Part shown: one piece after another, positions 53-28,519 of the stretch
Layout: each line of letters begins with the position of its first letter
How positions within the stretch are numbered: the first letter of the stretch is position 1
DNA from: an uncultured Candidatus Saccharibacteria bacterium
GTDB taxonomy: Bacteria; Patescibacteriota; Saccharimonadia; Saccharimonadales; AWTP1-31
DNA length: 64,000 nt
Direction: 5' to 3'
NCBI GenBank assembly: GCA_964629815.1
Contig: CAZVTA010000003.1
Location: forward strand, 48,721-112,720
The notes under the pieces: model-generated
The model's database searches: none
Told to the model about the DNA's origin: nothing
The model's input: the letters and a program-made list of their open reading frames with translations, nothing else
Position numbers and translations under genes: made by a program

Positions 53-754
53 TTACGCGGCTATACGATCGACGTTGTTGTCAATTTTGAATGAAACCAT
101 TCTGCCTCTGTTTGGAACTTCTCCAAAAGCAGGGTCTGCAATGTCTAGTTCTTTCCCAAAATCTCTTTGCGCTGCAGATACGATTCTTGGGTTAATTGTT
201 CTGAATAGTACTTCCGTTGGACGTGATCCACGAGTCAAGGAGCGGCACATATCTCCAAAATTGGCTAAGTTGCCTTTTGGGCGGATAGTTGTATCTGCGA
301 ATATATCGCTTATCCATGTGATTCTTGTTGTTTCTTCTGGGTATTTTTCACTAATCCATTGTTGCATTTCAGGATCATCACCATATACTTCGCGAGCGAG
401 TGCTTCTGCGGTTGTTACTCGTGCAAGTGTCGCAAGAGCTATTGTGCCGCTAGGATCTTTTTCGAGATACCATAGTGAGTGCGTGTCTTTGCTTTCGAAA
501 GTGAATTTAGCTTTGAGTTCCTCTGTAGGGAAGGCAGGTTCCGTGGGGCAGAGCTGGCATACTTCGCAGATCGAACCAACCGCAACCCTACTTAGTCCGT
601 CGGGGCAATTCGCCTGTTCTGTTTCTGAAGGACACTTACTAACTTCTTGCCACGGGCGAGCGGCAAACGCACCCTGGTACATTTCTACAAGTCGATCGAG
701 CTGATTCGATACTGCACTCGGTGCGTATACACCCCCATAATAAACTTCTGCCAT
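53..754 (-). CDS. GNAT-like acetyltransferase with Cys-rich insert (hypothetical)
   Basis: The ORF opens at 778 (TTG), but the ATG at 754 has AAGGAGG 6 nt upstream. The N-terminal YQGAFAARPWQE motif resembles the GNAT domain of ORF 2857..4218. An insert carries C-x8-C and CxxCxxC. Confidence 0.45.
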   Translation of the reverse strand: MAEVYYGGVYAPSAVSNQLDRLVEMYQGAFAARPWQEVSKCPSETEQANCPDGLSRVAVGSICEVCQLCPTEPAFPTEELKAKFTFESKDTHSLWYLEKDPSGTIALATLARVTTAEALAREVYGDDPEMQQWISEKYPEETTRITWISDIFADTTIRPKGNLANFGDMCRSLTRGSRPTEVLFRTINPRIVSAAQRDFGKELDIADPAFGEVPNRGRMVSFKIDNNVDRIAA

Positions 755-878
755 TTCTACCTCCTTCTTACCTCTCAAGGGTACATATTATTTAATAATT
801 ATGCAACAAAACTAAAGATATATTATAGTAGTATGGTAAAGATTGTTGTTGGCTGACAATACGTTAAAGGAGGAGTAT

Positions 879-2183
879 ATGGCGCGAGAACAAGGACCAA
901 TGTCGGGATTTAGGGATTTGCTTGCAGACCAGATGATTCCGCGTGAAGCTGTTTTGACTACTATTAAAGGTGTGTACGAAAGTTACGGTTTTGTTCCATT
1001 AAAAACCCCTGCACTTGAACGCTATGAAACACTGACGGGTAAATACGGCGAAGAGGGCGAGGGACTTATCTATCACTTTACTGATCATGGTGATAGACAT
1101 GTGGCGCTTCGGTACGACCAGACAGTGCCGTTAGCACGGGTTGTTGCGCAGCATGGCAATGAACTACCAAATCCGTATAAACGATATGCAGTCGGTGATG
1201 TGTGGCGAGGAGAAAGCCCGCAGGCAGGCAGGTATCGAGAGTTTATGCAGTTCGACGCTGATATTGTTGGTTCAGATAGTCCGTTGGCAGATGCTGAGAT
1301 TGTTGCGATGATGAGTGATGCGATGAGTCGTTTGGGTGTGAGTGCAACCATTCGCGTTAATGATCGGCGTCTTCTTGATGGGTTGGCACAGGCTTGTGGA
1401 GTTGATAGCCGCGAAGGTTTTATTCAGTTAACAACCATTATAGATAAGGTTGAAAAAGTTGGTCGTGCGGCAGTGCTCAAAGAGGTTGAAACGCTGTTCG
1501 ATGATCAGGCGAGCGGTATTGTTGATGAATATTTGTCGGTTGAAGCCGAAAGTGCAGATAAAAAACTCGATAAAATGAGTGAGCTTTTGGCAAATGATGT
1601 AGCAAGACTTGGAATTGATAGTTTGCGTAAAATCTTTGGGGTGCTGCGCTCGGCTGGTTATGACGAAGATGCAATTGTGTTCGATCAGTCAATTGCACGG
1701 GGTCTGAGCTACTATACGGGCACAATTTATGAAACCATGCTCGATGACCTACCAGAGATAGGTTCGGTTTGCAGTGGCGGTAGGTTCGATAATCTTATAG
1801 AACAGCTTGGTGGGCCAGATATGCCTGCGGTAGGTACTTCAATTGGTGTAGATAGGCTAATGACGGGTATGCGACAACTGGGTATCATGGAAGATGTGAA
1901 GACCAATACCCAGGTCTACATTACGAACGTTGATCCTGCGGTAGATAGTGCGCGCTTTGAACTTGCAAAGAAATTGCGCGATGCAGGTGTTGCGGCAGAA
2001 ATTTGGTACGGTACAGATAGGCTCGGCAAACAATTTAAAGCAATCGAGCGCCTTGGCGTGCAGAACGTAGTAATTCTTGGAGGCGAAGAAGCTGCCGCGG
2101 GTAATGTGACGGTTAAGAATCTTGCAACCGGTGAACAGCATACAATGAGTGTCGCCGATCTGGTTAAGCAGTATAGTGCCTAG
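879..2183 (+). CDS. hisS: histidyl-tRNA synthetase
   Basis: ATG 879 is preceded by AAGGAGG (the ORF opens at 843). Class II aaRS motifs are present: GFRDLL, RYDQTVPLARV, YREFMQFDADIVG. The length is typical. Confidence 0.9.
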   Translation: MAREQGPMSGFRDLLADQMIPREAVLTTIKGVYESYGFVPLKTPALERYETLTGKYGEEGEGLIYHFTDHGDRHVALRYDQTVPLARVVAQHGNELPNPYKRYAVGDVWRGESPQAGRYREFMQFDADIVGSDSPLADAEIVAMMSDAMSRLGVSATIRVNDRRLLDGLAQACGVDSREGFIQLTTIIDKVEKVGRAAVLKEVETLFDDQASGIVDEYLSVEAESADKKLDKMSELLANDVARLGIDSLRKIFGVLRSAGYDEDAIVFDQSIARGLSYYTGTIYETMLDDLPEIGSVCSGGRFDNLIEQLGGPDMPAVGTSIGVDRLMTGMRQLGIMEDVKTNTQVYITNVDPAVDSARFELAKKLRDAGVAAEIWYGTDRLGKQFKAIERLGVQNVVILGGEEAAAGNVTVKNLATGEQHTMSVADLVKQYSA

Positions 2184-2860
2184 ACCTCGGTAGTTAAATT
2201 GAGCTGGTCATAGATGGCATAGGGTTTTTTGTAATATTTAGCCCACTCTTTGTCGCCATAGCTAAAATGCCACCATTCGCCGTCGTAAGGTGCAAAACCT
2301 GCTTGTTTCATGACATCACGCAAAAGTCGTCTGTTGTCCCATGCTTGCTTGCTTATGAACGGCGAAAAAGTATATGAGTCTGGCACAAATTCCCATATGT
2401 GGGTTCCCATATTAATTGGTTTGCCTTCTTTAAGAATTCGTATATCGACTGCAGCACCAGTTGGGTGTCCTGCAACATCTGGTACGGCAATATTCCTATG
2501 CACGGCCTCGAGTAGCTCGACGCCGCTATATTTCTTTGCAAATTGTCGTTTGTATTTTTCGAAGAGCTCTTGTTGAATGTGTAAAGAACGGTGGCCGTAT
2601 ACGACTTCTAACGATAGCTTCTTCGAGACTTTCGCGAGTTCCTCGCTGGCAAGGGTAAGTCGTTCAGCGACCGATTCGCGTACAAGAACGGGTTGTTCAT
2701 ATAGCTCAAGTGTTTCGGAGTCGATTTGCTTTGCGCTCAGATTTGCTGTGGATTTTATTGGTACTAGCTTCTCTTTGTTGTCTTTGAAGGGTATCTTGAT
2801 GAGGTCGGTATAGTGAACCATCCTATCGGCTAGCTGTTGGTAGATGTCTTTTTTGTTCAT
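2180..2860 (-). CDS. D-alanyl-D-alanine dipeptidase, peptidase M15 (VanX/DdpX-like)
   Basis: Signatures are HPTGAAVD (H-x-x-G-x-A-x-D) and GEWWHFSYGD. The ATG overlaps the stop of the upstream gene (ATGA at 2857-2860). Confidence 0.8.
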   Translation of the reverse strand: MNKKDIYQQLADRMVHYTDLIKIPFKDNKEKLVPIKSTANLSAKQIDSETLELYEQPVLVRESVAERLTLASEELAKVSKKLSLEVVYGHRSLHIQQELFEKYKRQFAKKYSGVELLEAVHRNIAVPDVAGHPTGAAVDIRILKEGKPINMGTHIWEFVPDSYTFSPFISKQAWDNRRLLRDVMKQAGFAPYDGEWWHFSYGDKEWAKYYKKPYAIYDQLNLTTEV

Positions 2861-4218
2861 ACAAGAGTTAGACGGCCGTCGTACAGGATATCTACGGTGC
2901 CAGAGATGGTCGATGAAACGACTTTACCTTTTTTGGCATCGTAGTGTGCAGCGGTATTAATGGTCTCTCCTGAAGGCTGCAATACAGATACTGTAGTGCT
3001 TTTTTGCTGTTCTTGGGCAAGCGCAATGCCGATAGATGAAGTGCCGCTACCGCAGGCAGTTTCATCAAAAATGGTATCGACTTCTTTGACCCAGACGGCA
3101 AAGTCTGCCACTTCAGTTTGTTCGTTGTAGTAGGTAACGCCAACAGCTGGCTGTTCGGCAAGTCCGTAAGTGTTGCTTGCCAACAAGCTCTGTAATCGCT
3201 CCTTCGGGCTAGCGGCTTTACGTAGGACATCATCTGTAACGACCACATGAGCTATCCCATCGAGCGACACGAGCACGCCTTCGTCAACTACTTTTGCGAG
3301 CTCGCTAGCGGGTTCTTGGGGTAGTGGCATTTCTACGGTAATATTGCCGTCCTTAGACTCAAATGCAAGAGGTCTGTCGACGCCGGAAACTTCTATTTTA
3401 CCGGCATAGTCTTTACCTTCGGTTATGAGTCGGATTACGCTTCTTGTTGCGTTGCCGCAAAATTCACCACCGAACATCTCAACTCGGGCAACTGCTTCAG
3501 GGCTTTTTGGTGCGGTAACAAAACAGCACTGTTCTATTTCTGGCTGATCCGCAAATTGTTCTTGCCATGTTCTCATGATCCGGTCGTTTAGGCTTTGTCT
3601 ATCTTCGTCAAGCATTTGATCAGTAACGATAGCGGTTGTATTGCCCGATGGATATGCTATAACGGCGCGTTTTAGGTTTGTGGGTTTTTCCATGGTCTTT
3701 TCTCCATCAATGGTTCTTTCCAAATATACACGGTAATCGATCAGTAGTGATCCGTCGACACGAAAATGAGGACCAGCTTTTAGTATAGGCTGTTTTACGA
3801 AACCTTCAGATTCGTACAGCCCAATTGCGCGTACATTTTCTGCACTGGTACATATTTCGAGTTCGTCGGTGCCTTGTTCGAGCGCACGGTCAATGAGTGC
3901 ACGAAGTGTTTTTCGGCCCAAACCGTTTCCTTGGAGCTCTGGGTCGACGGCTAGTTCTTCAATGAAGTACTCTCTTGGAGCAGTGAAGTATCCGCCCGCC
4001 AATGAGACAACTTTGCCATCGGCGGCTCCTATAATAAGGTCTCCATTTTTGTCCAGAATATATTGCAAAGCACCTTGTGCCTCTTCTGGTGTGAAAGCCT
4101 CATTGTAAGGCGGGTCGGCAAATGCACGTTGATATATCGATACCGCTTCTTGGAGCCCCCAGTCCTCTAGATGATCAAGATTACTTACTCGCTCAAAACC
4201 AATGTCGTTGTTACCCAT
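2857..4218 (-). CDS. fusion protein: N-terminal GNAT acetyltransferase plus C-terminal DapF-fold (two-cysteine) epimerase/racemase-like domain
   Basis: A single 453-aa frame. GNAT motif A is ELAVDPELQGNGLGRK. The C-terminal half carries PSGNTTAIV, GGEFCGNATRS and DETACGSGTSS, spaced like the paired catalytic-Cys motifs of diaminopimelate-epimerase-fold enzymes. GGGAGA lies 6 nt before the ATG. Confidence 0.6.
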   Translation of the reverse strand: MGNNDIGFERVSNLDHLEDWGLQEAVSIYQRAFADPPYNEAFTPEEAQGALQYILDKNGDLIIGAADGKVVSLAGGYFTAPREYFIEELAVDPELQGNGLGRKTLRALIDRALEQGTDELEICTSAENVRAIGLYESEGFVKQPILKAGPHFRVDGSLLIDYRVYLERTIDGEKTMEKPTNLKRAVIAYPSGNTTAIVTDQMLDEDRQSLNDRIMRTWQEQFADQPEIEQCCFVTAPKSPEAVARVEMFGGEFCGNATRSVIRLITEGKDYAGKIEVSGVDRPLAFESKDGNITVEMPLPQEPASELAKVVDEGVLVSLDGIAHVVVTDDVLRKAASPKERLQSLLASNTYGLAEQPAVGVTYYNEQTEVADFAVWVKEVDTIFDETACGSGTSSIGIALAQEQQKSTTVSVLQPSGETINTAAHYDAKKGKVVSSTISGTVDILYDGRLTLV

Positions 4219-4256
4219 TGTATATCTCCCATATATTTGTATTTAAGAGTGTATCT

Positions 4257-4289
4257 AAAAAAGCCGGCAATGCCTAGCATATACCGGCT
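4257..4289 (-). terminator. intrinsic terminator-like hairpin plus U6, about 38 nt upstream of ATG 4218
   Basis: On the minus strand the sequence reads AGCCGG-tat-ATGC-tag-GCAT-tg-CCGGCT followed by TTTTTT. The plus-strand version has no T-run. Confidence 0.5.
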
Positions 4290-4315
4290 ATATATGGTAT
4301 TCGTTCAAACGAGAA

Positions 4316-4365
4316 GTAAGCCCAGCTTTCTGGGTTTGGCGGATTGACTGCCTGGGTGAGCTTAC
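4316..4365. other. compact three-helix RNA-like element (strand ambiguous)
   Basis: Closing helix GTAAG/CTTAC encloses hairpin CCCAG-cttt-CTGGG and hairpin GGCGG-attga-CTGCC. A second CTGGG copy could pair alternatively with CCCAG. Confidence 0.3.
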
Positions 4366-4381
4366 AATATTCATGCACTTA

Positions 4382-4410
4382 ACCATATCTTTATGTATTA
4401 CTTTTGTCAA
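4382..4410 (-). promoter_or_regulatory. candidate sigma70-type promoter for the 4218 operon leader
   Basis: Minus strand: TTGACA (4410-4405), 17-nt spacer, TATGGT (4387-4382). Confidence 0.35.
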
Positions 4411-4451
4411 CAGTCTTAAGACCGTTATGTGAACCAGATATGTCCTTAAGA

Positions 4452-4480
4452 TTGTCTTGAGGCGCATAAATGCATACTAT
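4452..4480 (+). promoter_or_regulatory. candidate promoter giving a leaderless or near-leaderless mRNA for ORF 4489
   Basis: TTGTCT, 17 nt, TACTAT, then 8 nt to the ATG. No SD is present. An imperfect inverted repeat CCTTAAG-attgt-CTTGAGG overlaps the -35. Confidence 0.4.
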
Positions 4481-4488
4481 TAGAATTA

Positions 4489-5001
4489 ATGGATTCTGCA
4501 GAGAAAGAGCCTCGAGCGGTGCCAGGCTTTGAGAGAATAGAAATCAGGCCTGATCTTACAGATTTTGATTTTACTCACGCCGGTTTGTATAGATGCAAAA
4601 CAGACGGCGAGGGCTTTGACGCGTATCAGCTGGATAGTGACGAGACGTTGGAGCACGGTTGGGGCGTACAAGATATGGTGGCGGGTGACTGGGTGGTATT
4701 GAAGCCCTCGTCAAAAGGGGGGTTCAAAAAAAGCGGTGTGCGAAAGGAGGCTTTTGACTTAACATATGTTCGTCTCGATCCGGGCAAGTATCGCAAGGAG
4801 TCTTATATTCGAGCACAGCAGATAGGTCAGCCGTTTACTTTTTTGGGCGTTGACAGTGACGAGCCAGAAATGGCGCCGGCGTATGCGTATATTGTTCTTA
4901 ATTTAGACAAGAACCAAAACCCGATTGTAATCAATGGAAGACGCGACATTTTTTATTACGATGAAGACGATCTGCATCGAGGGTATGATCTTGTAGCGTA
5001 G
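4489..5001 (+). CDS. hypothetical protein
   Basis: A 170-aa ORF with no recognisable motif. It is convergent with the response regulator gene, 8 nt apart. Confidence 0.5.
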   Translation: MDSAEKEPRAVPGFERIEIRPDLTDFDFTHAGLYRCKTDGEGFDAYQLDSDETLEHGWGVQDMVAGDWVVLKPSSKGGFKKSGVRKEAFDLTYVRLDPGKYRKESYIRAQQIGQPFTFLGVDSDEPEMAPAYAYIVLNLDKNQNPIVINGRRDIFYYDEDDLHRGYDLVA

Positions 5002-5009
5002 CCTACAAT

Positions 5010-5372
5010 CTAATTGAGTGTTTCGTTGATGATGTCGACGACTTGGTGGGGCGTGTAGTGTGCTTTGACGATGTAGCGGTCTACGTTGAGGAGTCGCAGG
5101 CTGGCGGGTGCCTCGTCTTTGCTGATGTTCGTAAGCACAATAACACGGATTTTGGCGCCCCATTCTGTTTGTCGTAGTTTTTCGAGCATCTCTTCGCCGT
5201 TCATAACAGGCATGCGTAGGTCGAGTAACACCAGATCTGGCCTAAACTCGTGAATAAGCTCTAAGCCCTCTTGGCCATCGTGGGCAGTAGCCACTTTGAA
5301 TCCACATGACTCTAATTTAAACTGGTACATTTTCGCTATTGGTATATCATCTTCTATGATCGCAATTTTCAC
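5010..5372 (-). CDS. single-domain response regulator (receiver only, CheY-like)
   Basis: GTG 5372 follows GGAG with a 5-nt spacer (the ORF opens at 5393 with TTG). Receiver motifs are KIAIIEDD, DLVLLDLRMPVMNG and VIVLTN..K. There is no output domain. Confidence 0.8.
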   Translation of the reverse strand: MKIAIIEDDIPIAKMYQFKLESCGFKVATAHDGQEGLELIHEFRPDLVLLDLRMPVMNGEEMLEKLRQTEWGAKIRVIVLTNISKDEAPASLRLLNVDRYIVKAHYTPHQVVDIINETLN

Positions 5373-5391
5373 ATTTTCTCCTAGATAAGAC

Positions 5392-5420
5392 AAAAAAGTA
5401 GCCCCGCTAGAGAGCTACTT
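5392..5420 (-). terminator. intrinsic terminator after ORF 5494..6240
   Basis: Minus strand: AAGTAGC, 11-nt loop, GCTACTT, followed by TTTTTT. It ends 19 nt before the regulator start codon. Confidence 0.5.
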
Positions 5421-5493
5421 AATTAATTTTCAAAGGTTCAAAGTGAGTATATACCCTGCTTATTGTAATAGTCAAACAATAATTTACATTAAT

Positions 5494-6240
5494 TTACATT
5501 TTATCATCGTTTGTGTTGTTGAATTTGCGCTCTCGGTATTTCTTTATACCTTCGAGTATTCCAAACGTCGCAACCGAGATCACTCCACCGGTTGCCAAGG
5601 TTTCAGTCGGATTATCCAAAGCGTACGTCAGAACTGACTGCGTACTGTCACCGAGTTGTCTGAACGGGGGTATAGGCGTGGTCCAGAGTGCAACACAGCC
5701 TGCATAGATAGCTGCGTGAGCTTTGCGTCTATTACGGCTTGATTCTATGCCTAACGAACGATCGACCGTGATAGTTGGTCCAGCGCCTTGCCATACAGCG
5801 CTTGCAAGGGGTGTTATTTCTTTACGGAAAGTAGAAGCCGTACTTGGTGTTGGCGCATCAATCTTGTTTGCCGGTTTATTTCTGGCAAGAAAGTTTGATT
5901 GGGCATAGTCAAATGGACCAATTACTGCACCTACAAGAAGGGCTGCGGCCCATCTATTCACGTGCCCTCCATCAACAAGAGCTTCGCCACCTGCAACCCC
6001 CGCCAACCATTCAAAAGTTGATAACTGACGAGCTACATGAAAACTTAATAATCGTCGCACAGCACTAGTACCGCTACCAGTATTAAGTTCACGAAGTACC
6101 TCTGTGGGTGCTGATTCACTAGGGACTTCACAAGAAGCAGTGTTGTGCTTATCTTCTAGAAACTCAGAGCAAAGATGATTCGCAATCATGTCCATGACGT
6201 ACTCATCATTCGCGATACTAGTAGGAGAGTCTATTTCCAT
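5494..6240 (-). CDS. hypothetical membrane protein
   Basis: A 248-aa ORF with about four hydrophobic segments. No family was recognised. Confidence 0.5.
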   Translation of the reverse strand: MEIDSPTSIANDEYVMDMIANHLCSEFLEDKHNTASCEVPSESAPTEVLRELNTGSGTSAVRRLLSFHVARQLSTFEWLAGVAGGEALVDGGHVNRWAAALLVGAVIGPFDYAQSNFLARNKPANKIDAPTPSTASTFRKEITPLASAVWQGAGPTITVDRSLGIESSRNRRKAHAAIYAGCVALWTTPIPPFRQLGDSTQSVLTYALDNPTETLATGGVISVATFGILEGIKKYRERKFNNTNDDKM

Positions 6241-6317
6241 ACAAAATATAATACTACAAAATTAATGAATTGTCAAATACGCTTACGCTTGCATTGTTTT
6301 TGTCGTGAGTATATGGT

Positions 6318-6719
6318 GTGGATATGTTAACGGTAGAAACTTACATAAAACCAAGTGAAATTGAAGGCACGGGCTTATTTGCTGCGCAACCCATTGCAAA
6401 AGGGGGAAAACTTTGGGTTTTTCAACCGGGTTTTGATATTGTTTACGATGTTAAAGAAGTGCGTGAAATGCCGAAATCAGTACAGGATTACCTAGAGGAG
6501 TATGCCTCATTGATTCCTCAGCTCGGGAAGCTACTTCTATGTGGCGACAATGATAGGTTCACAAATCATAGTTATAGCCCAAATAGACGGTTTGAGTTCG
6601 TATCACCGACCGAAATGTATGAGTTTGCTACTCGAAATATTGCTGTAGGGGAAGAGCTCACCAACAACTACCAAGAGTTTGATGCAGATTTCCTGAGCTA
6701 CGCGAGTAGGCTCAGATAA
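6318..6719 (+). CDS. SET-domain protein (putative protein-lysine methyltransferase)
   Basis: Motifs are IEGTGLFAAQPIAKGGKL, the NHSYSPN signature (NHSxxPN) and GEELTNNY. Minimal size of about 131-133 aa. The start could be GTG 6318 or ATG 6324. Confidence 0.75.
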   Translation: MDMLTVETYIKPSEIEGTGLFAAQPIAKGGKLWVFQPGFDIVYDVKEVREMPKSVQDYLEEYASLIPQLGKLLLCGDNDRFTNHSYSPNRRFEFVSPTEMYEFATRNIAVGEELTNNYQEFDADFLSYASRLR

Positions 6720-6796
6720 GCGTTGACTTTTTGACTAATGTGTAGTACTATGTCTGCAAGGTCATTTGATCTTGGTCCATTAGAAGATTAATCAAG

Positions 6797-6831
6797 CGAG
6801 CACTAGTTTAACTGATAGTGCTCGTTTTTTT
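6797..6831 (+). terminator. intrinsic terminator
   Basis: A 9-bp stem CGAGCACTA/TAGTGCTCG with a 10-nt loop and a T7 run. It lies 78 nt after the SET stop and ends 16 nt before ATG 6848. Confidence 0.65.
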
Positions 6832-6847
6832 GTATCGGAGACAAAAT

Positions 6848-7705
6848 ATGGCATTAATGGAGAGAATTAGTAGCGAATCGTTCGTAGATGCGAACGTTAA
6901 CCCGTATGGGGTTGAGTTAGATTCGCCATTGATTCTTGCAAGAACTAAGGATTTGGTTACAACAGAGATTCCTTATATTGATGCCACTACTAATCCTGAT
7001 ATTGCCTCAGAGAACGGAGTATATTCAGTTTATGAAGTTGATGCATGTCACCCTGCATCAGATGTAGCGCGTGCAATCGAAGGGCGCGTTAGCGTAGAGG
7101 ATTGGGAGCAGGATTCTGCAATAACTCAGTACGATGCTTCTTTGTATGAGCAGAACTCAAGATTCTTCCTGGTTGTAGATATGAGCGATCCGGATAAACC
7201 AAAGCCAGCAGTATCTCTAAGGGTTGCTGACTGTATGTCTGGTGACTCATCTACAGTGAATTACTTCAAAGAATGTTATGGAGATAGTATTGCGTTGCCT
7301 CCTGAGATGAGCTTTGGTGACCCAGAGAGCAGGGTTTGGGATGTCGTGGGTGTCATGGCTCCTAAGTCTTACAGAAACGGTTTTGCTTCTGCATGGGCTT
7401 ATCATGCGCTCTATAAGCGAAGCATGGAGCTTGGTATTGACTCTTGGATCGCATGCATCGCCGATAAGGAGTACGATAACTTAAAAGCTGTAGGGATAGA
7501 TTTTGTGCCTATACAGGGCTTACCAAAAGTTGAGCTTTCCCTGGAAAGATCGCGCAAAGGTATTGATTTTGGTTTCTATACCGCAAATGTCCCTCTTCAG
7601 GGAATTAATGTAGCCAAAACAATTGAAGGTCTTGACGCAAAGTATGGGCTTAGTGTTTTACTGAGAAAAATTGCAAGTATATGCTTAAAAGGTAGCTTTG
7701 CTTAA
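6848..7705 (+). CDS. hypothetical protein, possibly acyl-CoA N-acyltransferase fold
   Basis: ATG 6848 follows GGAGA. The ORF-track start at 6818 lies inside the terminator stem. Resemblance of the C-terminal half to GNAT-like folds is weak. Confidence 0.45.
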   Translation: MALMERISSESFVDANVNPYGVELDSPLILARTKDLVTTEIPYIDATTNPDIASENGVYSVYEVDACHPASDVARAIEGRVSVEDWEQDSAITQYDASLYEQNSRFFLVVDMSDPDKPKPAVSLRVADCMSGDSSTVNYFKECYGDSIALPPEMSFGDPESRVWDVVGVMAPKSYRNGFASAWAYHALYKRSMELGIDSWIACIADKEYDNLKAVGIDFVPIQGLPKVELSLERSRKGIDFGFYTANVPLQGINVAKTIEGLDAKYGLSVLLRKIASICLKGSFA

Positions 7706-7742
7706 GTAATGTATTTTTGTGCTTTACTCTTTTTGACGTAAA

Positions 7743-9971
7743 ATGAGTTTAAGCATGACTATTATTAGAATAATATCAGTACTACTGAGTGTTATTATAC
7801 TTGCCACTGGAGCACTGGTATTTCTTAGAAACAGAAAGCCCATAACAAACAAGCTTTACTTGGCAATGGCGGTTCTCTCTGGTTTGTGGGGCATGATTTA
7901 TCAAAGTATTGAGTTTTTTGACTCCATCGTTTTGGTAAAACTATTTAATTCGTTAGCATACGCTACAGGTCTTTTGCTTATGAGTAGTGGGGTTGCGTTT
8001 ACATATTACTTTCCCGTAAAACGTAAAGCAAGGTTCCTAAAACCTTTTATTATCCTTGTTCTAGTAACTTTCTTTCTTAGTTTCACACCTCTAGTTTCCG
8101 GCGATGTTATAAAAGTAAGCTCAAGCCCGCTGATATATGAGTACACTACAGGCACGCTCGAGTATTTATATATAGCGACCATGGCATATGGCATATGTCT
8201 TATCGTTCGGAACCTGTTTAGACGAAATACTTCAGCTACAGCCATACAAAAAACTCAGTCGAATTTAGTTGCCAGCGGTTTTGCTCTGAGCTTAGTTACT
8301 GGGGTTTCTCTCTCTGTTGTTTTTCCGATGTTTTCAGATAGTGTATTTCTAGATAATCTTGCCCCGTTTTCGTTGGTATTTGTCAGTGGTTTTACTGCGG
8401 TGGCCATAGTGAAGCATAAACTGTTCGATATTCGTTTGATTGTTGCACGCTCGCTTGGCTATGTACTGACTCTGTTGACCATTGCCGGGGGTTATTCGTT
8501 TTTGGTTTTTGTGGTGTTCGCACAGTTCTTGGGGGCAAAAGACCTTTCCAATTACCAGCAAGCGCTGTATGTGATCTTGGCAATTGTATTTGGCTTTAGT
8601 CTGCCACCGCTGAAGAATTTCTTTGATAGAGTTTCGAATACGCTGTTTTATCGCGATGCGTACGATGCAGCTGCGTTTTTAGATCAGTTTAACCGTGTGC
8701 TGGTTGGCAACATTGACTTACAGCCGCTCTTACGGCAGTCTTCTGAACTGATAGAACAAACGCTCAAGGCCGAATATTGCTTGTTTGGTATTAAAGAAAC
8801 AGACAGCACGCCGCGCCGTATTATCGGTACTAAAACGCTCGATTTTACCGAAGAAGATATTGCGGCCACCATGTCGGATACGCCACATATCCATAAAAAG
8901 CTCATTGTGACCGACGAGCTCGAAGAGGGGCATGCGGAGCTGAAAGCACGGCTTAGCAAGTACAATATTGCGGTTTTGGCACGGCTCATCTCTCGTCCTA
9001 ACCAGAAAGAAGGCCAAGGATATTTAATTTTAGGCCAAAAGAAGAGCGGTAACCCCTATAACAAGCAAGACCTGCAGGTGCTCGAAATTATTGTGAACGA
9101 GCTCGTTATCGCTATTCAGAACTCTATGCGTTTCGAAGAGATTCAGGCCTTTAACGTAACGTTGCAAGAAAAGGTTAACGAGGCAACGCGTAAACTGCGA
9201 CTTACGAATGAAAAATTAAAGGCGCTCGACCAGACTAAAGATGAGTTTATCAGCATGGCATCGCACCAGCTGCGTACGCCTTTAACATCGGCAAAAGGCT
9301 ACCTAAGTATGGTTATTGAAGGGGATGTTGGTAAGCTGAACAAAAAACAACACGACCTGCTTGGACAGGCTTTTGCAAGTAGCCAGCGCATGGTGTATTT
9401 AATCGCGGATCTTCTGAACGTATCGAGGTTACAAACTGGTAAGTTCGTAATCGAAAACAAGCCAACCCAGCTTGCCGATGTCATAGAGACCGAAATCGCT
9501 CAGCTGGAGGAGGCTGCAAGGGCAAAAGAAATGACCCTGACCTATAAAAAACCAAAGAACTTCCCGTTGCTTAATATGGACGAGACCAAGATTCGCCAGG
9601 TCGTGATGAATTATGTCGACAATGCCCTGTATTACACGCCCGCAAAAGGCCATATCAACGTATCGCTTGAAGATAAGGGAAATAGCATCGAGTTTAAGGT
9701 GGTAGATGATGGTCTTGGTGTACCAAAGCACGAACAGCACCACTTGTTTACCAAGTTTTTCCGTGCGGGTAATGCTCGTAAGGCTCGCCCCGATGGCACA
9801 GGGCTAGGGCTATTTATGGCGAAAAAGGTGGTTGTAGCCCAAGGTGGAGCAATTATCTTTGAGAGTGAAGAGGGCAAGGGTAGTACATTTGGCTTTACGT
9901 TCCCTAAAGATAAGCTCAAAGTAACTGCAGAGAGCGCAAAACAGGCACAAGAAGCCGATATTACACTGTAA
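7743..9971 (+). CDS. sensor histidine kinase with polytopic N-terminal membrane domain
   Basis: About seven hydrophobic segments in the first 290 aa. H-box is SMASHQLRTPLTS. ATPase boxes are VDNALYYT, DDGLGV and GTGLGLFMAKK. Confidence 0.85.
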   Translation: MSLSMTIIRIISVLLSVIILATGALVFLRNRKPITNKLYLAMAVLSGLWGMIYQSIEFFDSIVLVKLFNSLAYATGLLLMSSGVAFTYYFPVKRKARFLKPFIILVLVTFFLSFTPLVSGDVIKVSSSPLIYEYTTGTLEYLYIATMAYGICLIVRNLFRRNTSATAIQKTQSNLVASGFALSLVTGVSLSVVFPMFSDSVFLDNLAPFSLVFVSGFTAVAIVKHKLFDIRLIVARSLGYVLTLLTIAGGYSFLVFVVFAQFLGAKDLSNYQQALYVILAIVFGFSLPPLKNFFDRVSNTLFYRDAYDAAAFLDQFNRVLVGNIDLQPLLRQSSELIEQTLKAEYCLFGIKETDSTPRRIIGTKTLDFTEEDIAATMSDTPHIHKKLIVTDELEEGHAELKARLSKYNIAVLARLISRPNQKEGQGYLILGQKKSGNPYNKQDLQVLEIIVNELVIAIQNSMRFEEIQAFNVTLQEKVNEATRKLRLTNEKLKALDQTKDEFISMASHQLRTPLTSAKGYLSMVIEGDVGKLNKKQHDLLGQAFASSQRMVYLIADLLNVSRLQTGKFVIENKPTQLADVIETEIAQLEEAARAKEMTLTYKKPKNFPLLNMDETKIRQVVMNYVDNALYYTPAKGHINVSLEDKGNSIEFKVVDDGLGVPKHEQHHLFTKFFRAGNARKARPDGTGLGLFMAKKVVVAQGGAIIFESEEGKGSTFGFTFPKDKLKVTAESAKQAQEADITL

Positions 9972-10165: not shown

Positions 10166-11167
10166 ATGCCCCAAAATCCAGAAGTAGGATTAGTTCGTCG
10201 AACGCTTGCTGCAGCAGTAGTTATTGGTGTTGGCGGCGCAATGCTCGCAGGTTGTGGCGAAGGTTCAATTCGCGCAATTGGCAATGCAAATACAAATAGC
10301 GATGGTACAGAAGCAACTGCAGGCCAGCCAACCGACGCTTGCCCAGATACATGGGAAATGCCAGGTTTGCCACTCAATGATATGCATCGTGTTGTTGTTG
10401 ACGGTATGCCAGAGCTCGGTAATGCCGCAAATGAAGAACAAGCACGAGCTGCGTTAGCTAAGTGGGTCGACGAAGTTGTTTCAGTAGATGATGATGTTCT
10501 CTTTGCCTATGCAAGGGAAATTACTGGCGAGGAATTTAATCAAGACGCTATGGTTGATTCAGACGGCTGTGCGACTGACGAAGCCGAACGTGCAAGACTT
10601 GCCATAGAAACTACAATTGGTTTATCAGACGTATCTGATGGTTCAGTAGATTTGCCCGCGGATCTTACAAATACGGGTGTAGAAGATGATGGAAGGGTTG
10701 TCATTGCTGCTCAACCTGGGATTAGTGGCGATCGTAGTGGAGTTCTCATTGTTACCCCAGACGGTAAAATAGTGGGCTTTCTTGATCGATGTAGCAATTT
10801 AGCAGTACTAAAACCACATTCAAATAGCCCGACGGGTCGAACAGACGAACCAGGCGTCACTCCAAAGTACGACGATGGACGTTTGCCAGGCGATCCAAAT
10901 GTGCCTGCAGACCAAGACAAGGGTACACCCGACAAGCCAGGTAGGGGCCCAGCTGGGCAAAAGCCTGATGCTGAGGGCTATATCCCTTCAGAAACTCGTC
11001 CCGAAGCACCTTCGACTACAGAAACGCAGTCATCCCCAGGTACACCTGAAGATCGTGGTCCAGCAACAACCAACCCACGTCCGAGCGGTCCAGCAACAAC
11101 GGTCGTTGCAACAACGGTCGTTGCTACTTCAACCCCTAATACGGCACCATTGCCAACGGCTCCATAA
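10166..11167 (+). CDS. putative lipoprotein with Pro/Thr-rich C-terminus
   Basis: SD AAGGGAG. An RR-containing n-region is followed by a hydrophobic core ending in the LAGC lipobox. A short tandem DNA duplication (caacaacggtcgttg x2) lies near the 3' end. Confidence 0.6.
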   Translation: MPQNPEVGLVRRTLAAAVVIGVGGAMLAGCGEGSIRAIGNANTNSDGTEATAGQPTDACPDTWEMPGLPLNDMHRVVVDGMPELGNAANEEQARAALAKWVDEVVSVDDDVLFAYAREITGEEFNQDAMVDSDGCATDEAERARLAIETTIGLSDVSDGSVDLPADLTNTGVEDDGRVVIAAQPGISGDRSGVLIVTPDGKIVGFLDRCSNLAVLKPHSNSPTGRTDEPGVTPKYDDGRLPGDPNVPADQDKGTPDKPGRGPAGQKPDAEGYIPSETRPEAPSTTETQSSPGTPEDRGPATTNPRPSGPATTVVATTVVATSTPNTAPLPTAP

Positions 11168-11193
11168 GTAGAAGAAATAAGAGGAAATAGTAT

Positions 11194-12789
11194 ATGAAAT
11201 TTACAAACCCAATCAAAAAGTTCTTCAGTAAGATCCCTAAGAAGCTTCTACTGGTAATCGTAAGTGTATTCTTGGCCGTAGGTGTAGCAGGTTTGGTTCG
11301 TGCAGAGTTTTACCCTGATCGACCAACCTACGACTACAACAAGCCATGTAACCCAAACGACGCAGACAAGTATGACCGCTGTGGCTCGCTTGAAGGCCCA
11401 GTGTTTAACAGCTTCATCAACACGCCAAGCTATGGCGACGAACGAGCTTTTGCAGATGCTCGAAAGAGTGAAAACACTGCAAGCGGTAGCTACAAGAATG
11501 TTCTTGAAGATGTAACCACTGGTAGTCGCGAAGTTGTTGTACGTATGTACGTACACAACAATGCAAACAGCGATACTAATGCATCTGGCAAGGGTATTGC
11601 ACGCGACACAAAAGTACGTGTTGCACTGCCAACCGCCGAATCGCAAACACTTCGAACTCGAAGCTATGTTTCTGCAAGCAATGCCGCAATGGTAGAAGAT
11701 ACCGTTGATCTTGTTGGCGCACAGGCATTCAAAGTCGAATACGTTCCTGGCTCTGCAATCATCTATAGCAATGGTCCAGTAAATGGTCAGAAGCTTTCAG
11801 ATAATATTGTTACAACCGGTGCTCCTATCGGCTATAACGCACTAGACGGCAATTTGCCCGGCTGTTTCGATTACGAAGCTGTTGTACAGATCCGTGTACG
11901 GGTTATTGTAAAAGAAGTTCCAACCCTTAAATTTACGAAGCAAGTACGTATGGCTGGTACAAAAGAGTGGAAAAAAGAAGTTACTGCTAAACCTGGTGAC
12001 AAAGTAGAATGGTTGCTTACAACACAGACTGCTGGTACCGGCGTAAACAATAACATTACTGTTCTTGACGTGCCTGCTCCAAATACCTCACTTGTTCCTG
12101 GTAGCGTAAAGTGGATCGACGGTGCGCAAGGCACAGTCCCACAAGGCGACACTGGTCTATTTAACGGCGGTGGAATCAACTTTGGTAACTATGGTCCAAA
12201 CAGCGGCTTCTATGTGACCTACGGCAGTACGCTTGGTGGTGATTTTAAAGAGTGTGAAGTACGCGTGCGTAACCTTGCATATGTAAAATCAACTCAAGTT
12301 AAAGAGATTGGCGACGATGCAGATGTTGTTATCAAGAAAGACAATTGTCAGCCAGAGAAACCAAAGCCTGTGTATAGCTGTGATCTTATGACTGCAGAAA
12401 AAGTTGGCGACAAGAAGTATAAGTTTGTCGTAAACTACACTGCTAAAGATGGCGCAAGCCTCAAGATCGCAACATTCGACTTTGGCGACGGTAGCGAGAA
12501 GTTTGTAACCGACAAGACTACGACAGAACACACCTATACTAAAGATGGTTCGTTTGTAGCACGGGTTGCACTTACCTTCCGTGTAGATGGCCAAGATAAA
12601 GTTGTAGAAGGTGATAAGTGTGCAACACCTATCAGCATTACGACTCCTACAACCCCAGATAAGCCAGTTACTCCAGCAAAAGAGTTGCCAAACACTGGTG
12701 CGGGTAACCTCTTAGGTATATTTGTGGGCGTAAGCACAATGGGTGCTGCACTGTATCAAGCAGTTGCTCGCCGGCGCCTAATACGATAA
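11194..12789 (+). CDS. LPXTG-anchored surface protein with PKD-like domain
   Basis: N-terminal signal anchor. PKD-like FDFGDGS...HTYTKDGSF. C-terminal LPNTG plus a hydrophobic segment plus the RRRLIR sorting signal. Confidence 0.75.
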   Translation: MKFTNPIKKFFSKIPKKLLLVIVSVFLAVGVAGLVRAEFYPDRPTYDYNKPCNPNDADKYDRCGSLEGPVFNSFINTPSYGDERAFADARKSENTASGSYKNVLEDVTTGSREVVVRMYVHNNANSDTNASGKGIARDTKVRVALPTAESQTLRTRSYVSASNAAMVEDTVDLVGAQAFKVEYVPGSAIIYSNGPVNGQKLSDNIVTTGAPIGYNALDGNLPGCFDYEAVVQIRVRVIVKEVPTLKFTKQVRMAGTKEWKKEVTAKPGDKVEWLLTTQTAGTGVNNNITVLDVPAPNTSLVPGSVKWIDGAQGTVPQGDTGLFNGGGINFGNYGPNSGFYVTYGSTLGGDFKECEVRVRNLAYVKSTQVKEIGDDADVVIKKDNCQPEKPKPVYSCDLMTAEKVGDKKYKFVVNYTAKDGASLKIATFDFGDGSEKFVTDKTTTEHTYTKDGSFVARVALTFRVDGQDKVVEGDKCATPISITTPTTPDKPVTPAKELPNTGAGNLLGIFVGVSTMGAALYQAVARRRLIR

Positions 12790-15361: not shown

Positions 15362-15436
15362 TGGTGACCTCAAGGGGAATCGAACCCCTATTGCCGGGAT
15401 GAAAACCCGGTGTCCTAACCGTTAGACGATGAGGCC
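15362..15436 (-). tRNA. tRNA-Glu (anticodon UUC), CCA encoded
   Basis: The reverse complement folds as a cloverleaf. Acceptor is GGCCTCA/TGAGGTC, the anticodon stem CCGGG/CCCGG carries loop TTTTCAT, the T-arm is AGGGG-TTCGATT-CCCCT, and the 3' end is ACCA. Confidence 0.93.
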
Positions 15437-15540: not shown

Positions 15541-16980
15541 ATGGACATAACAGACAGGGCACCAAATGTGCCAATTTCTCAGTTTAAACGGACTAAAATA
15601 ATAGCCACGGTGGGCCCAGCTACGAATAGCTATAAAGCAATAATTACGCTCATGAAGAATGGCGTAAATGGGTTTAGGCTGAACTTTAGCCATGGTGATT
15701 ATGAAGAACGTGAACAGCAGATTGCTTGGATTCGTAAGGCTAGCAAAGAATATGGAAAGCCGGTAGCTATTATCCAAGATTTGTGTGGGCCAAAGATTCG
15801 ACTGGGTGACTTCGACGGATTTATTAATGTGCAAACGGGGCAAAGTTTAAGTTTTGGGTACGAGTCGAACTATGCAGATTCTGGACTGATTCCTGTTCAG
15901 TATGATCTATCGAAGCGTGTAAAGCGCGGCGAACGACTATACTTATTTGATGGCAGAATACGCACAATAGTAACCAGCGTGCGCGATGGCGTGGTGCATG
16001 TGCGGGCAGAAAATGACGGCGTACTCGTAAAACGAAAAGGCATTAATCTGCCCGATACAGACTTAGGCGGCGACATATTGACTGCAAAAGATCGTAAAGA
16101 TATGGCTTTTGGCGCAGAACACGACATTGACTTTGTGGCAATAAGTTTTGTGCAGCGCGCCCAAGATGTGATCAAAGCGCGAACAGCGCTAAAGAATTTG
16201 GGCAGTAAGGCAAAGATTATCTCAAAACTTGAAACCAATGCGGCAACCGAAAATCTGGAAGAAATTATTCAGGCTTCTGATATGGTTATGGTTGCTCGTG
16301 GCGACCTTGCAGTTGAAACTCGACCAGAGAGTGTGCCTATTCTGCAGCGGCAAATCATTGGCCTAGGTATGAAGTATGCAACGCCAACTATCGTAGCAAC
16401 GCAGATGCTCGCCAGCATGACAGAAGTGCCCGAGCCAACACGCGCAGAAGTATCAGATATTGCCACTGCAGTTATACTAGGGGCCGACTGCGTAATGCTC
16501 AGCGATGAAACGGCCGCAGGACGGTATCCGATTGAGGCAGTAGAAATTATGAAGCGAGTCATTCTATATACCCAAACACATAACCCTCTACATGTTACTT
16601 ATGGCATAGAGGAATTGAATGTCGGGACGGGCCGACAGCAGGCGATCAGTAATGCGGTAATTGGACTGGCTGATTCTATAAAAGCGAGTGCAATTGTTGC
16701 AGAAACCAAAACCGGAGCGACTGCGCTACACATTACGAGTCGCCGACCGAGCATACCCGTAATTGCCGTAGCAAGCGACGAGCGCACTGCTCAGCAGCTT
16801 GCATTAGCGTACGGGGTAAAGAGCTACAACCGACCGGTAGATAAATTTGCTTCAACAAAATTGACGAACTGGCTGCATCAAAATAAGGTGCTTAAAAAGG
16901 GTGATATTGTAGTAACGGTTTCTGGTCAGTATCCTGGCGTGGTGGGTACGACAGATACTATAAAAGTTCGAGTGCTATAA
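15541..16980 (+). CDS. pyk: pyruvate kinase
   Basis: Motifs are TKIIATVGPAT, LNFSHGD, MVARGDLAVE and the C-terminal domain. TACAAT lies 10 nt upstream of the ATG and there is no SD. Confidence 0.92.
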   Translation: MDITDRAPNVPISQFKRTKIIATVGPATNSYKAIITLMKNGVNGFRLNFSHGDYEEREQQIAWIRKASKEYGKPVAIIQDLCGPKIRLGDFDGFINVQTGQSLSFGYESNYADSGLIPVQYDLSKRVKRGERLYLFDGRIRTIVTSVRDGVVHVRAENDGVLVKRKGINLPDTDLGGDILTAKDRKDMAFGAEHDIDFVAISFVQRAQDVIKARTALKNLGSKAKIISKLETNAATENLEEIIQASDMVMVARGDLAVETRPESVPILQRQIIGLGMKYATPTIVATQMLASMTEVPEPTRAEVSDIATAVILGADCVMLSDETAAGRYPIEAVEIMKRVILYTQTHNPLHVTYGIEELNVGTGRQQAISNAVIGLADSIKASAIVAETKTGATALHITSRRPSIPVIAVASDERTAQQLALAYGVKSYNRPVDKFASTKLTNWLHQNKVLKKGDIVVTVSGQYPGVVGTTDTIKVRVL

Positions 16981-17003
16981 TAGGCAAAAAGAAGCGGTGG
17001 GAC

Positions 17004-18290: not shown

Positions 18291-18316
18291 AGTAAGGTAC
18301 AATAAGCATAATTACT

Positions 18317-28128: not shown

Positions 28129-28519
28129 TGGTGGAGCTGGCGGGTACTGCCCCCGCGTCCGCTGGTTTATCTTGATTAGTCTTCTACAGGTATAGGTCGT
28201 TTAGGGTTTTCTCGATCACTCGGCCGGTAAACGACCAAAAAGTCGAATAATCCAGTCCAAAGTCTTGGCGTCTAGTATGGACGGTACTAAACGAGCATCC
28301 AGATGATATGGCGTGCACTTACGCTATCTGAAGTCACATAAGGCACGGCTACCAATAAATTAGGCAGCAAATGCAAAGGCATTTTGACGTGCGTTAAGCA
28401 CGTTGTCTACCATTGCAGTAAGTGAATTTTTTGCATCTGTTCAGATGTACCTATAACGCTGATAAGCGACCTGCTGATCTAACCGATAAAGTCCGACGTC
28501 GAGCTTAAAATTCAGCCCC
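28129..28519 (-). ncRNA. ssrA: tmRNA (transfer-messenger RNA)
   Basis: The minus-strand 5' end is GGGGCTGAATTTTAAGCTCGACG and the 3' end is GGACGCGGGGGCAGTACCCGCCAGCTCCACCA. The acceptor stem has a G3-U pair. An internal tag frame ends ...NAFAFAA-TAA. Confidence 0.9.
28360..28416 (-). other. tmRNA tag-peptide reading frame
   Basis: GCA ATG GTA GAC AAC GTG CTT AAC GCA CGT CAA AAT GCC TTT GCA TTT GCT GCC TAA. The resume codon could be the first GCA (after the A6 run) or the internal GCA (giving ARQNAFAFAA). Confidence 0.6.

Follow-up and report, generated by a model that had tools for sequence, protein, structure and literature searches.

Closest described systems

Two cofactor-independent histidine racemases only have been characterised, CntK, which makes D-histidine (D-His) for the biosynthesis of staphylopine, and the Fusobacterium enzyme HisR, whose role is an open question (PMC11602996). 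A relative of both was identified in a 64,000-nucleotide stretch of contig CAZVTA010000003.1 (assembly GCA_964629815.1, positions 48,721 to 112,720 of the forward strand; the whole stretch is called the window below) from an uncultured Candidatus Saccharibacteria bacterium. Here the racemase is the C-terminal domain of a fusion protein with an N-terminal GNAT acyltransferase domain, and the stop codon of the fusion gene overlaps the start codon of a gene for a VanX-type (M15) zinc dipeptidase. The racemase and the dipeptidase are proposed to form a conserved module for the supply of histidine.

CntK of Staphylococcus aureus (6JIS, 6JIW, 6L4L) and HisR of F. nucleatum (9CR1, 9CR6) have the same two-domain fold as the window racemase, which resembles that of diaminopimelate epimerase (DapF), with two cysteines (in EFCGN and CGSG) and three glutamates. 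Histidine binding by HisR has been proposed to involve N18, E65, C67, G68, N69, E206, C209 and S211, with Asn18 and Glu206 contacting the alpha-amino group and Gly68, Asn69, Ala210 and Ser211 the carboxylate; the imidazole contacts, Glu65 and Glu206 in HisR and Glu46 and Glu208 in CntK, are proposals only, and HisR tolerates no backbone modification of its substrate (PMC11602996). Unlike these two enzymes, the window racemase is fused to an N-terminal GNAT and scores far under their equivalog cut-offs. The genetic partners differ as well, being M15, hisS and a HisR-type repressor in the clade of the window racemase, cntL and cntM (staphylopine) for CntK, and pab-type genes for Fusobacterium hisR. 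The sequence similarity network of the published study was limited to 250-308 residues and therefore could not include such fusions (PMC11602996).

A repressor with a histidine regulon in Firmicutes and other phyla is also called HisR (YerC). Its operator consensus is cacTTTAnnnnnnTAAAgtg, a 20-bp palindrome, with histidine acting as co-repressor in vitro; the published regulon members are histidine biosynthesis genes and histidine transporters, and neither a racemase-M15(-hisS) operon nor Saccharibacteria is mentioned (PMC9413887). In relatives of the window locus, the operon opens with a gene of the YerC/YecD family behind a palindrome fitting this consensus, whereas the window has neither.

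The D-Ala-D-Ala dipeptidases VanX and DdpX (PF01427) have their zinc ligands, catalytic Glu and Arg in common with the window M15 protein. The latter differs in having a racemase as its coupled partner in place of vanH/vanA or a ddp transporter, in forming its own clade and in its predicted substrate, a D-His dipeptide. RimI and the phosphinothricin/methionine-sulfoximine-type GNATs have the fold, the Q-x-x-G-x-G coenzyme A (CoA) motif and the catalytic-type Tyr of the window GNAT, which unlike them is fused to a racemase and falls under the rimI cut-off. DapF itself agrees in overall fold and in its two-Cys mechanism with the window racemase, which scores below the cut-off of the DapF profile TIGR00652. 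A further comparison is offered by Geobacillus, in which a GNAT succinyltransferase, an N-succinylamino-acid racemase and an M20 desuccinylase form a pathway (bioRxiv 10.1101/2022.03.03.481873). This pathway likewise joins a GNAT, a racemase and a metallo-amidohydrolase for stereo-inversion. Its racemase belongs to the enolase superfamily and its M20 enzyme is L-specific, whereas the window encodes a DapF-like racemase and a predicted D-specific M15 enzyme. All three Geobacillus enzymes are needed, via N-succinyl intermediates, whereas the GNAT of the window type is dispensable in several lineages.

The fusion protein and its spread

The sequence-only reading of this DNA had described one uninterrupted frame of 453 aa joining a GNAT to a two-Cys racemase, and this was borne out. 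The motifs quoted in it were found at their positions in the fusion protein (ELAVDPELQGNGLGRK at aa 88, PSGNTTAIV at aa 190, GGEFCGNATRS at aa 250 and DETACGSGTSS at aa 385) and in the M15 protein (HPTGAAVD at aa 132, EWWH at aa 195). The overlap of the fusion TGA with the M15 ATG was also found as described: the junction reads ...CTT GTA TGA / ATG AAC AAA, with ATGA common to both genes. Of 25 related racemase/M15 pairs from several phyla, 21 had a 4-nt ATGA or GTGA overlap, whether or not a GNAT was present; this count takes in three loci added after the 38-locus table described below.

Both halves were present in 56 of 63 aligned homologues, which came from independent assemblies. Among 8000 scored candidates, 546 homologues were found, most of them 440-500 aa long with both domains. 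The identical protein was encoded on an independently assembled Logan contig (3 samples). An AlphaFold2 model of the whole fusion had a mean predicted local distance difference test score (pLDDT) of 94.7 and a predicted template modelling score (pTM) of 0.92, the sole dip being the linker at residues 171-180. The 453-aa protein is a genuine two-domain enzyme. An assembly or frameshift artefact, the danger that the sequence-only reading had named, and a chance adjacency are both practically ruled out by the at least 56 homologues, the independent contig, the pTM of 0.92 and the overlaps in 21 of 25 pairs.

Fusions were seen in Saccharibacteria, Dojkabacteria, Nitriliruptoraceae and Nocardia (taxa as named in the deposited records), and stand-alone racemases of about 275 aa belonging to the same clade were also found. 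In the literature no description of a GNAT::racemase fusion or of a racemase/M15 operon was found, in keeping with the earlier statement that no characterised fusion of such a layout was recognised; nothing relevant was found on PF26317, N-acetyl-D-histidine or D-histidine in Saccharibacteria.

Two further arrangements of racemase and acyltransferase were observed. The contig-truncated C-terminus of a polyketide synthase (PKS; protein P0093, L035 1..2169) carries ketoreductase (KR), PP-binding (carrier), GNAT and CntK_N racemase domains, and is followed by an amidohydrolase-family gene (L035 2350..3831) in the usual position of the M15 gene. The domain order of P0093 suggests an off-loading chemistry yielding N-acyl-(D-)histidine in another lineage, and suggests that the GNAT acylates the amino acid on which the racemase domain acts. 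In an Actinomycetota metagenome-assembled genome (MAG; L028 8001..9699), a stand-alone racemase of the clade precedes a separate, unrelated GNAT gene (PF00583/PF13480 type, 270 aa); this locus, which has no M15 gene, is an independent pairing of racemase and acyltransferase.

Racemase domain

Based on NCBIfam profiles, the best match of the racemase domain was CntK (NF033599, E 3.7e-22), followed by the HisR racemase (NF052224, E 1.7e-12) and DapF (E 3.2e-5). The PDB sequence matches were CntK (6jis, 6l4l and 6jiw, all deposited under the name 'diaminopimelate epimerase') and HisR (9cr6, 9cr1). Foldseek ranks 1-8 were all CntK or HisR, with E values of 7e-19 to 8e-15 and TM-scores (TMt) of 0.74-0.78; YddE/PhzF came next, and no DapF structure was present among the 50 best fold matches. 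The DapF profile TIGR00652 gave 23.5 bits against a cut-off of 114.65, and PF01678 was not found in the fusion at E<=0.1. The CntK_N family (PF26317) was precomputed for the identical protein, an assignment that rests on this precomputed annotation, the local Pfam copy having given no match. The C-terminal domain is a CntK/HisR-type cofactor-independent two-Cys racemase, so that the DapF-like fold proposed earlier was correct but too general. It is placed in a third clade and is not regarded as an orthologue of CntK or HisR, because it scores under both equivalog cut-offs and has ~21-22% identity to these enzymes.

In the 63-sequence alignment both catalytic cysteines were conserved, as had been anticipated, C254 in 60 and C389 in all 63 sequences; they align to C72 and C211 of CntK and to C67 and C209 of HisR. 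The proposed imidazole-binding glutamates were likewise conserved (E229 63/63, E252 63/63, E386 62/63), as were N193 (63/63), G255 (62/63) and N256 (62/63). Together with S391, each of these nine residues (N193, E229, E252, C254, G255, N256, E386, C389, S391) was kept in 60-63 of the 63 sequences. The equivalents of the HisR/CntK contacts in this protein are N193, G255/N256, G390/S391, E252, E386 and E229, the last being set on CntK E46 by the alignment to CntK. Free histidine is the most likely substrate (D-His <-> L-His).

M15 dipeptidase

The downstream protein matched PF01427 with 68.2 bits (cut-off 27). Residues R91, H132, D139, E195 and H198 were invariant in 36-39 M15 orthologues. H132, D139, E195 and H198 align to VanX H116, D123, E181 and H184, giving the zinc ligands H132, D139 and H198 and the catalytic E195; R91 was paired with VanX R71 by motif only (YGHRS vs DGYRP). 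With this full set of zinc-binding and catalytic residues, the earlier designation of the partner as VanX-type stands. The acidic residue aligned with VanX D142, which we take to bind the N-terminal ammonium of the substrate, is kept as Glu157. The best fold match of its AlphaFold2 model was VanX 1r44 (E 2.7e-7), and identity to VanX was 29%, over the C-terminal ~100 residues only. The equivalog scores were low for VanX (NF033115, 45.5 vs 320) and DdpX (PRK10178, 54 vs 176), and VanXY was also below its cut-off. The clade comprises 1105 homologues with a uniform length of ~226 aa. The protein is predicted to be a cytoplasmic VanX-type zinc dipeptidase, which should cleave the dipeptide bond preceding a D-residue.

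GNAT domain

Residues 37-140 of the fusion matched PF00583 with 62.1 bits (cut-off 20.7). Among 56 fusion homologues, Q96 was conserved in 55, G99 in 54, G101 in 56, N128 in 54 and Y135 in 56, and Y135 aligns with the catalytic Tyr of RimI. The best structural matches of this half were 5isv, 4j3g, 5dwn and 2j8m; in the Foldseek comparison, RimI (5isv, 4j3g) and phosphinothricin acetyltransferase (PAT; 5dwn) were matched with TMt 0.71-0.78, the range for RimI and PAT structures in general being 0.71-0.81. The rimI equivalog TIGR01575 gave 51.4 bits against a cut-off of 86.4. The domain is apparently active and RimI/PAT-like, and would acylate an alpha-amino group with acetyl-CoA or another acyl-CoA. 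It is considered accessory because seven M15-linked operons, in which the racemase stands alone, lack it. Yeast Hpa3 detoxifies D-amino acids by N-acetylation.

Two other roles for the GNAT were considered. A tRNA-dependent transfer of the Fem type, acting on His-tRNA, was rejected, the classical CoA-binding motif being conserved. Detoxification, as by MccE or RimL, of an aminoacyl-adenylate mimic directed against histidyl-tRNA synthetase (HisRS) would leave the intact racemase active site unexplained.

Gene neighbourhoods in relatives

The context set comprised 42 related loci, namely 33 genome loci encoding relatives and nine further contigs. The locus table held 38 loci, of which 34 had enough downstream sequence to be evaluated. 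An M15 gene was found directly 3' of the racemase in 23 of these 34, in 16 of 19 loci with a GNAT-fused racemase and in 7 of 15 with a stand-alone one, so the linkage claimed for the window is kept in relatives. Pairs were found in Saccharibacteria, Dojkabacteria, Actinobacteria and one Chlamydiae MAG. A decayed-looking archaeal pair was observed in a Methanobrevibacter sp. MAG (L029 4640..6086), in which the racemase match is split over two frames (4640..5215 and 5214..5423) and the M15 frame has an in-frame stop.

Genes of histidine metabolism or its control recur beside the pair: at least one of a HisR-like repressor gene, hisS and hisG adjoins 20 of the 23 M15-linked loci of the 38-locus table. 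By clustering of neighbouring open reading frames (ORFs), a TrpR-like gene of the YerC/YecD family encoding ~105 aa was found directly 5' in 15 loci. Its products scored 50.7-77.4 bits with TIGR02531 (cut-off 42.2), and the best PDB match was 3G1C (E 4e-11), the Eubacterium eligens HisR that was used for structural analysis in PMC9413887. Eleven of the 15 regulator loci carry (C/T)ACTTTACTTnnnTAAA(G/C)T(A/G) at the start of the regulator gene, which fits the published HisR consensus and is unique in those 11 loci at 0-1 mismatch; one other such box, an AT-rich site in Methanobrevibacter L029, was present in the ~397 kb of flanks scanned. The HisR-like protein (e.g. that of L001 or L037) is predicted to bind the sequence CACTTTACTTTGATAAAGTA. 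In L037 and L038 the repressor, racemase, M15 and hisS genes, whose reading frames overlap, make up a single operon.

A hisS or hisS-like gene adjoins the pair in 11 of the 38 tabulated loci and additionally in L040-L042. Besides L037 and L038, hisS is adjacent in the window, L006, L007, L010, L011, L016, L017, L025, L040 and L041; it lies directly 3' of M15 in L006, L010, L016, L017 and L040, and converges on M15 in L007, L011, L041 and the window, where the sequence-only reading had overlooked it. The most syntenic loci are the Saccharibacteria MAGs L007 and L011 (HisRS 64-65% and M15 65-66% identical, with a flanking ORF in common). A hisG gene lies beside the cassette in two actinobacterial lineages (131 and 129 bits, cut-off 75.75). 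In Nocardia sp. (L025 6010..11101) and Nitriliruptoraceae (L017 8001..12589), full-length hisS and hisG flank the fusion and M15 genes in a four-gene block, which in Nocardia stands beside a glycosyltransferase, a carbamoyltransferase and another GNAT. The ~50% identity of the actinobacterial to the Saccharibacteria proteins suggests a transfer between phyla.

In L036, L041 and L042 a gene for an SSF symporter is located directly 5' of the fusion gene. This cluster lies near genes for urocanase (hutU), an imidazolonepropionase-type amidohydrolase (hutI) and a fusion of a HisRS-like protein to an aromatic lyase, as well as near divergent HisRS paralogues and a peptide-type ATP-binding cassette transporter. 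Divergent HisRS paralogues were located at L041 587..3202 (-), L040 8210..9667, and L042 2345..3703 and 10697..12055; they scored 217-252 bits against the hisS cut-off of 286.75 and showed no clear anticodon-binding domain, and one of them, of 871 aa, is fused to an aromatic-amino-acid-lyase (HutH-like) domain. A zincophore context of the cnt type was also considered and rejected, no cntL- or cntM-type genes being present among the annotated neighbours.

Proposed histidine supply

Based on the domain identities, the fold, the conserved catalytic residues, the coupling of the genes and the histidine context, the racemase and the M15 dipeptidase are proposed to be a conserved histidine-supply module, with a probability of roughly 0.55; we infer histidine as the substrate, D to L as the direction and the identity of the dipeptide. 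Supply calls for a racemase only with D-configured input, which fits the D-specificity of the VanX family, and the M15 enzyme is therefore proposed to release D-His. It would free D-His from a D,D-dipeptide containing it, which might be imported, or might be D-Ala-D-His mis-made by a D-Ala-D-X ligase when D-His is present, the M15 enzyme then serving as a safeguard. The racemase would turn D-His into L-His, to be consumed by the adjacent HisRS and, in other lineages, by Hut enzymes too. In many relatives the module would be switched on at histidine limitation through the HisR (YerC) repressor. The GNAT would be an optional add-on which, speculatively, N-acetylates surplus D-His or the co-released D-amino acid as a safety valve against D-amino-acid toxicity. 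The product of the GNAT is not a sensible substrate for the M15 enzyme, because both proteins are without signal peptides and co-translated and a futile cycle would result; for this reason, and because operons without a GNAT exist, a role of the M15 enzyme as a deacylase reversing the GNAT was rejected. The earlier view of three activities forming one module held for the coupling of racemase and M15; to take the GNAT as obligatory would be too strong, given the seven M15-linked loci without one. A wider statement, that racemase and M15 enzyme, whether or not a GNAT is fused, constitute an unrecognised, widespread D-histidine utilisation pathway, controlled by HisR and linked to hisS as a response to histidine limitation, is made tentatively and is held to be rather less than an even chance.

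Several points weigh against histidine supply as the function. The racemase domain is far under the equivalog cut-offs (79.1 vs 300 for CntK, 47.6 vs 400 for HisR) and ~20-22% identical to these enzymes; as a member of a third, deeply divergent clade it could have a different substrate, for example another basic amino acid. The functions of the racemase, the GNAT and the M15 protein are predictions from sequence, structure and context, and the M15 model is of medium confidence only (pLDDT 74.7). We know of no abundant natural source of D-His dipeptides. Salvage leaves the fusion of the racemase to a His-consuming acetyltransferase unexplained, and biosynthesis would account equally well for the variant linked to a PKS and for the putative extra copies of hisS and hisG in Nocardia. 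The co-occurrence fractions are approximate, the loci having been gathered by racemase similarity with simple ORF calling. No HisR-like gene is present in the window (best tblastn E 0.035), no TTTAn6TAAA box was found 5' of the fusion gene, and the Saccharibacteria-type box was unmatched window-wide at <=3 mismatches; because regulator and box are missing there, no histidine-responsive control is claimed for the genome of the window.

Alternative explanations

Fusions usually join consecutive steps, and a racemase for a free amino acid followed by an acyltransferase for the alpha-amine is a natural order. The fusion might accordingly drive biosynthesis, from L-His to D-His and then to an N-acyl-D-His serving as metabolite, signal or building block, with the hisS and hisG copies providing precursor supply or self-resistance and the hydrolase acting in maturation or immunity. 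This would agree with CntK, the best-studied relative, producing D-His for biosynthesis (PMC11602996), with the KR-PP-binding-GNAT-CntK_N order at the PKS C-terminus of P0093 and the amidohydrolase-family gene in the place of M15, and with the Nocardia block of hisS, fusion, M15 and hisG beside a glycosyltransferase, a carbamoyltransferase and a GNAT. However, a repressor that comes off when histidine is low would be an odd control for a pathway that uses up His, the GNAT is wholly absent from the seven M15-linked loci, and the association with hut genes and a symporter speaks for uptake and consumption. Genes of the cntL or cntM type are also lacking among the annotated neighbours, and the module is common in Saccharibacteria. 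These bacteria have small genomes and little secondary metabolism. Biosynthesis is considered unlikely, at something like one chance in five. An irreversible stereo-inversion by an N-acyl route analogous to that of Geobacillus, with the same three classes of enzyme in one operon (GNAT, racemase, metallo-amidohydrolase), was weighed as well: the GNAT would acylate His, the racemase would invert N-acyl-His and the M15 enzyme would deacylate the D-form. An N-acyl-D-amino acid does share the acyl-NH-CH(R)-COO- geometry of the C-terminal half of a D,D-dipeptide. Yet the contacts of HisR to a free alpha-ammonium and alpha-carboxylate are conserved here, and HisR tolerates no modified backbone; racemase and M15 occur in operons without a GNAT; and the release of a D-residue by M15 would give net conversion of L to D, which clashes with the context of histidine supply. 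The Glu157 kept at the position of VanX D142 would argue for a dipeptide over an N-acetyl amino acid. This route is regarded as highly improbable.

The sequence-only reading had favoured peptidoglycan-derived D-amino acids, with hydrolysis of D-Ala-D-Ala, inversion of D-Ala, D-Glu or diaminopimelate and then N-acetylation serving salvage or detoxification. The lineage is known as epibiont. The closest syntenic loci are from Saccharibacteria MAGs, the M15 protein is VanX-like with a full catalytic set, and a MurD-like ligase and MurL epimerase pair is located just outside the window. The substrate assignment was not supported: the DapF equivalog failed (23.5 vs 114.65) and PF01678 gave no match at E<=0.1, the histidine-type Glu triad is invariant, the M15 protein is far under the VanX and DdpX equivalog cut-offs (45.5 vs 320; 54 vs 176), and the genes conserved nearby are of the his and hut groups instead of mur, ddl or dap. 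In addition, Ala and Glu racemases have other folds. A peptidoglycan role is therefore judged improbable, and the supply of L-His from D-His dipeptides is preferred.

Significance

If histidine supply is the function, it would be a physiological role beyond metallophore synthesis for cofactor-independent histidine racemases. The M15 protein, whose gene is annotated here as 'D-Ala-D-Ala dipeptidase', would then be the first member of the VanX family with a specialisation for dipeptides that contain D-His. VanX-type peptidases, usually read as vancomycin-resistance or cell-wall enzymes, would thereby gain a new substrate class, the HisR regulon a new class of members, and the GNAT would serve as an integral safety valve that N-acetylates D-amino acids. 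Amino-acid-auxotrophic Saccharibacteria would draw on surrounding D-amino acids, which bears on the amino-acid needs of ultra-small epibionts. Hundreds of metagenomic proteins that are widely labelled 'diaminopimelate epimerase / RimI' would also have their annotation corrected. The third racemase clade is large, and its context gives a testable hypothesis, the conversion of D-His or D-His dipeptides to L-His at histidine scarcity.

Layout of the locus and other features of the window

The positions of the features are collected in Table 1. The stop codons of hisS and the M15 gene overlap at 2180..2183, and the window hisS scored 397.7 bits with TIGR00442 (cut-off 286.75).

Table 1. Features of the fusion/M15/hisS locus (positions in the window; residue numbers refer to the encoded protein)
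Feature	Position	Strand	Details and basis
GNAT::CntK/HisR-type racemase fusion gene	2857..4218	-	453 aa, ATG start, stop codon included; ORF and Pfam/NCBIfam matches
GNAT N-acyltransferase domain, aa 1-170	3709..4218	-	PF00583 and Foldseek
Short low-confidence linker, aa ~171-182	3673..3708	-	pLDDT = 65 in block 171-180
Acetyl-CoA pyrophosphate-binding motif Q96-G-N-G99-L-G101 of GNAT	3916..3933	-	Conservation; coordinates verified
Catalytic-type Tyr135 of GNAT	3814..3816	-	Conservation
Cofactor-independent two-Cys racemase domain, aa 183-453, CntK_N (PF26317) family	2860..3672	-	Profiles, PDB sequence matches, Foldseek
Catalytic Cys254 (EFCGN motif)	3457..3459	-	Conservation; roles from PMC11602996
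E252, equivalent of HisR Glu65	3463..3465	-	Conservation; roles from PMC11602996
Catalytic Cys389 (ETACGSGT motif)	3052..3054	-	Conservation
E386, equivalent of HisR Glu206 / CntK Glu208	3061..3063	-	Conservation
E229, equivalent of CntK Glu46	3532..3534	-	Alignment to CntK
ATGA stop/start overlap of fusion gene and M15 gene	2857..2860	-	Sequence read
VanX-type (M15) zinc dipeptidase gene	2180..2860	-	226 aa, ATG, stop included, without N-terminal signal-like segment; PF01427
hisS (histidine--tRNA ligase), convergent with M15 gene	843..2183	+	TIGR00442; tRNA-synt_His and HGTP_anticodon
Intergenic region 5' of fusion gene	4219..4488	.	One promoter-like site, no HisR operator

Upstream of the fusion gene, one promoter-like site (TTGACA-17-TATGGT, 10/12 match) was identified at 4410..4382 on the minus strand. 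The promoter and terminator scan gave nothing above shuffled sequences, promoter-like sites in 4219..4488 being no more frequent than in shuffles. An Rfam scan of the whole window found tRNA and tmRNA only, with no T-box or other leader and no element in 4219..4488.

An ORF of 241 aa at 53..778 (-) is divergent from hisS and has no Pfam, NCBIfam or PDB match. Homologues with 42-49% identity stand beside the same cassette in L007 (6280..7029, -) and L011 (3634..4323, +). At its N-terminus, LVEMYQGAFAARPWQE is similar to the opening residues of the fused GNAT, AVSIYQRAFADPPYNE, in a local match of 30 residues only (E 0.012).

On the contig of the window, just beyond window position 1 (L034 14615..17220), a gene for a MurD-like Mur ligase is followed by one for a MurL-type epimerase (PF26299/PF26298); the pair is ~3 kb from the cassette and adjoins a response regulator. 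In the MurD-like/MurL route, L-Glu is added to the peptidoglycan precursor and epimerised later. On the other side of the cassette, a stand-alone response-regulator receiver (5010..5393, -), a SET-domain protein (6318..6719, +) and a membrane histidine kinase of 742 aa (7743..9971, +) are encoded, together with two ORFs without family matches within 5010..9971. A SET-domain methyltransferase is unusual for a small-genome bacterium. Further along the window, a tRNA gene (15365..15436, -), a tmRNA gene (28129..28519, -; 60.5 bits) and a row of housekeeping genes for pyruvate kinase, phosphoglycerate kinase and triose-phosphate isomerase (15541..19120, +) were identified.

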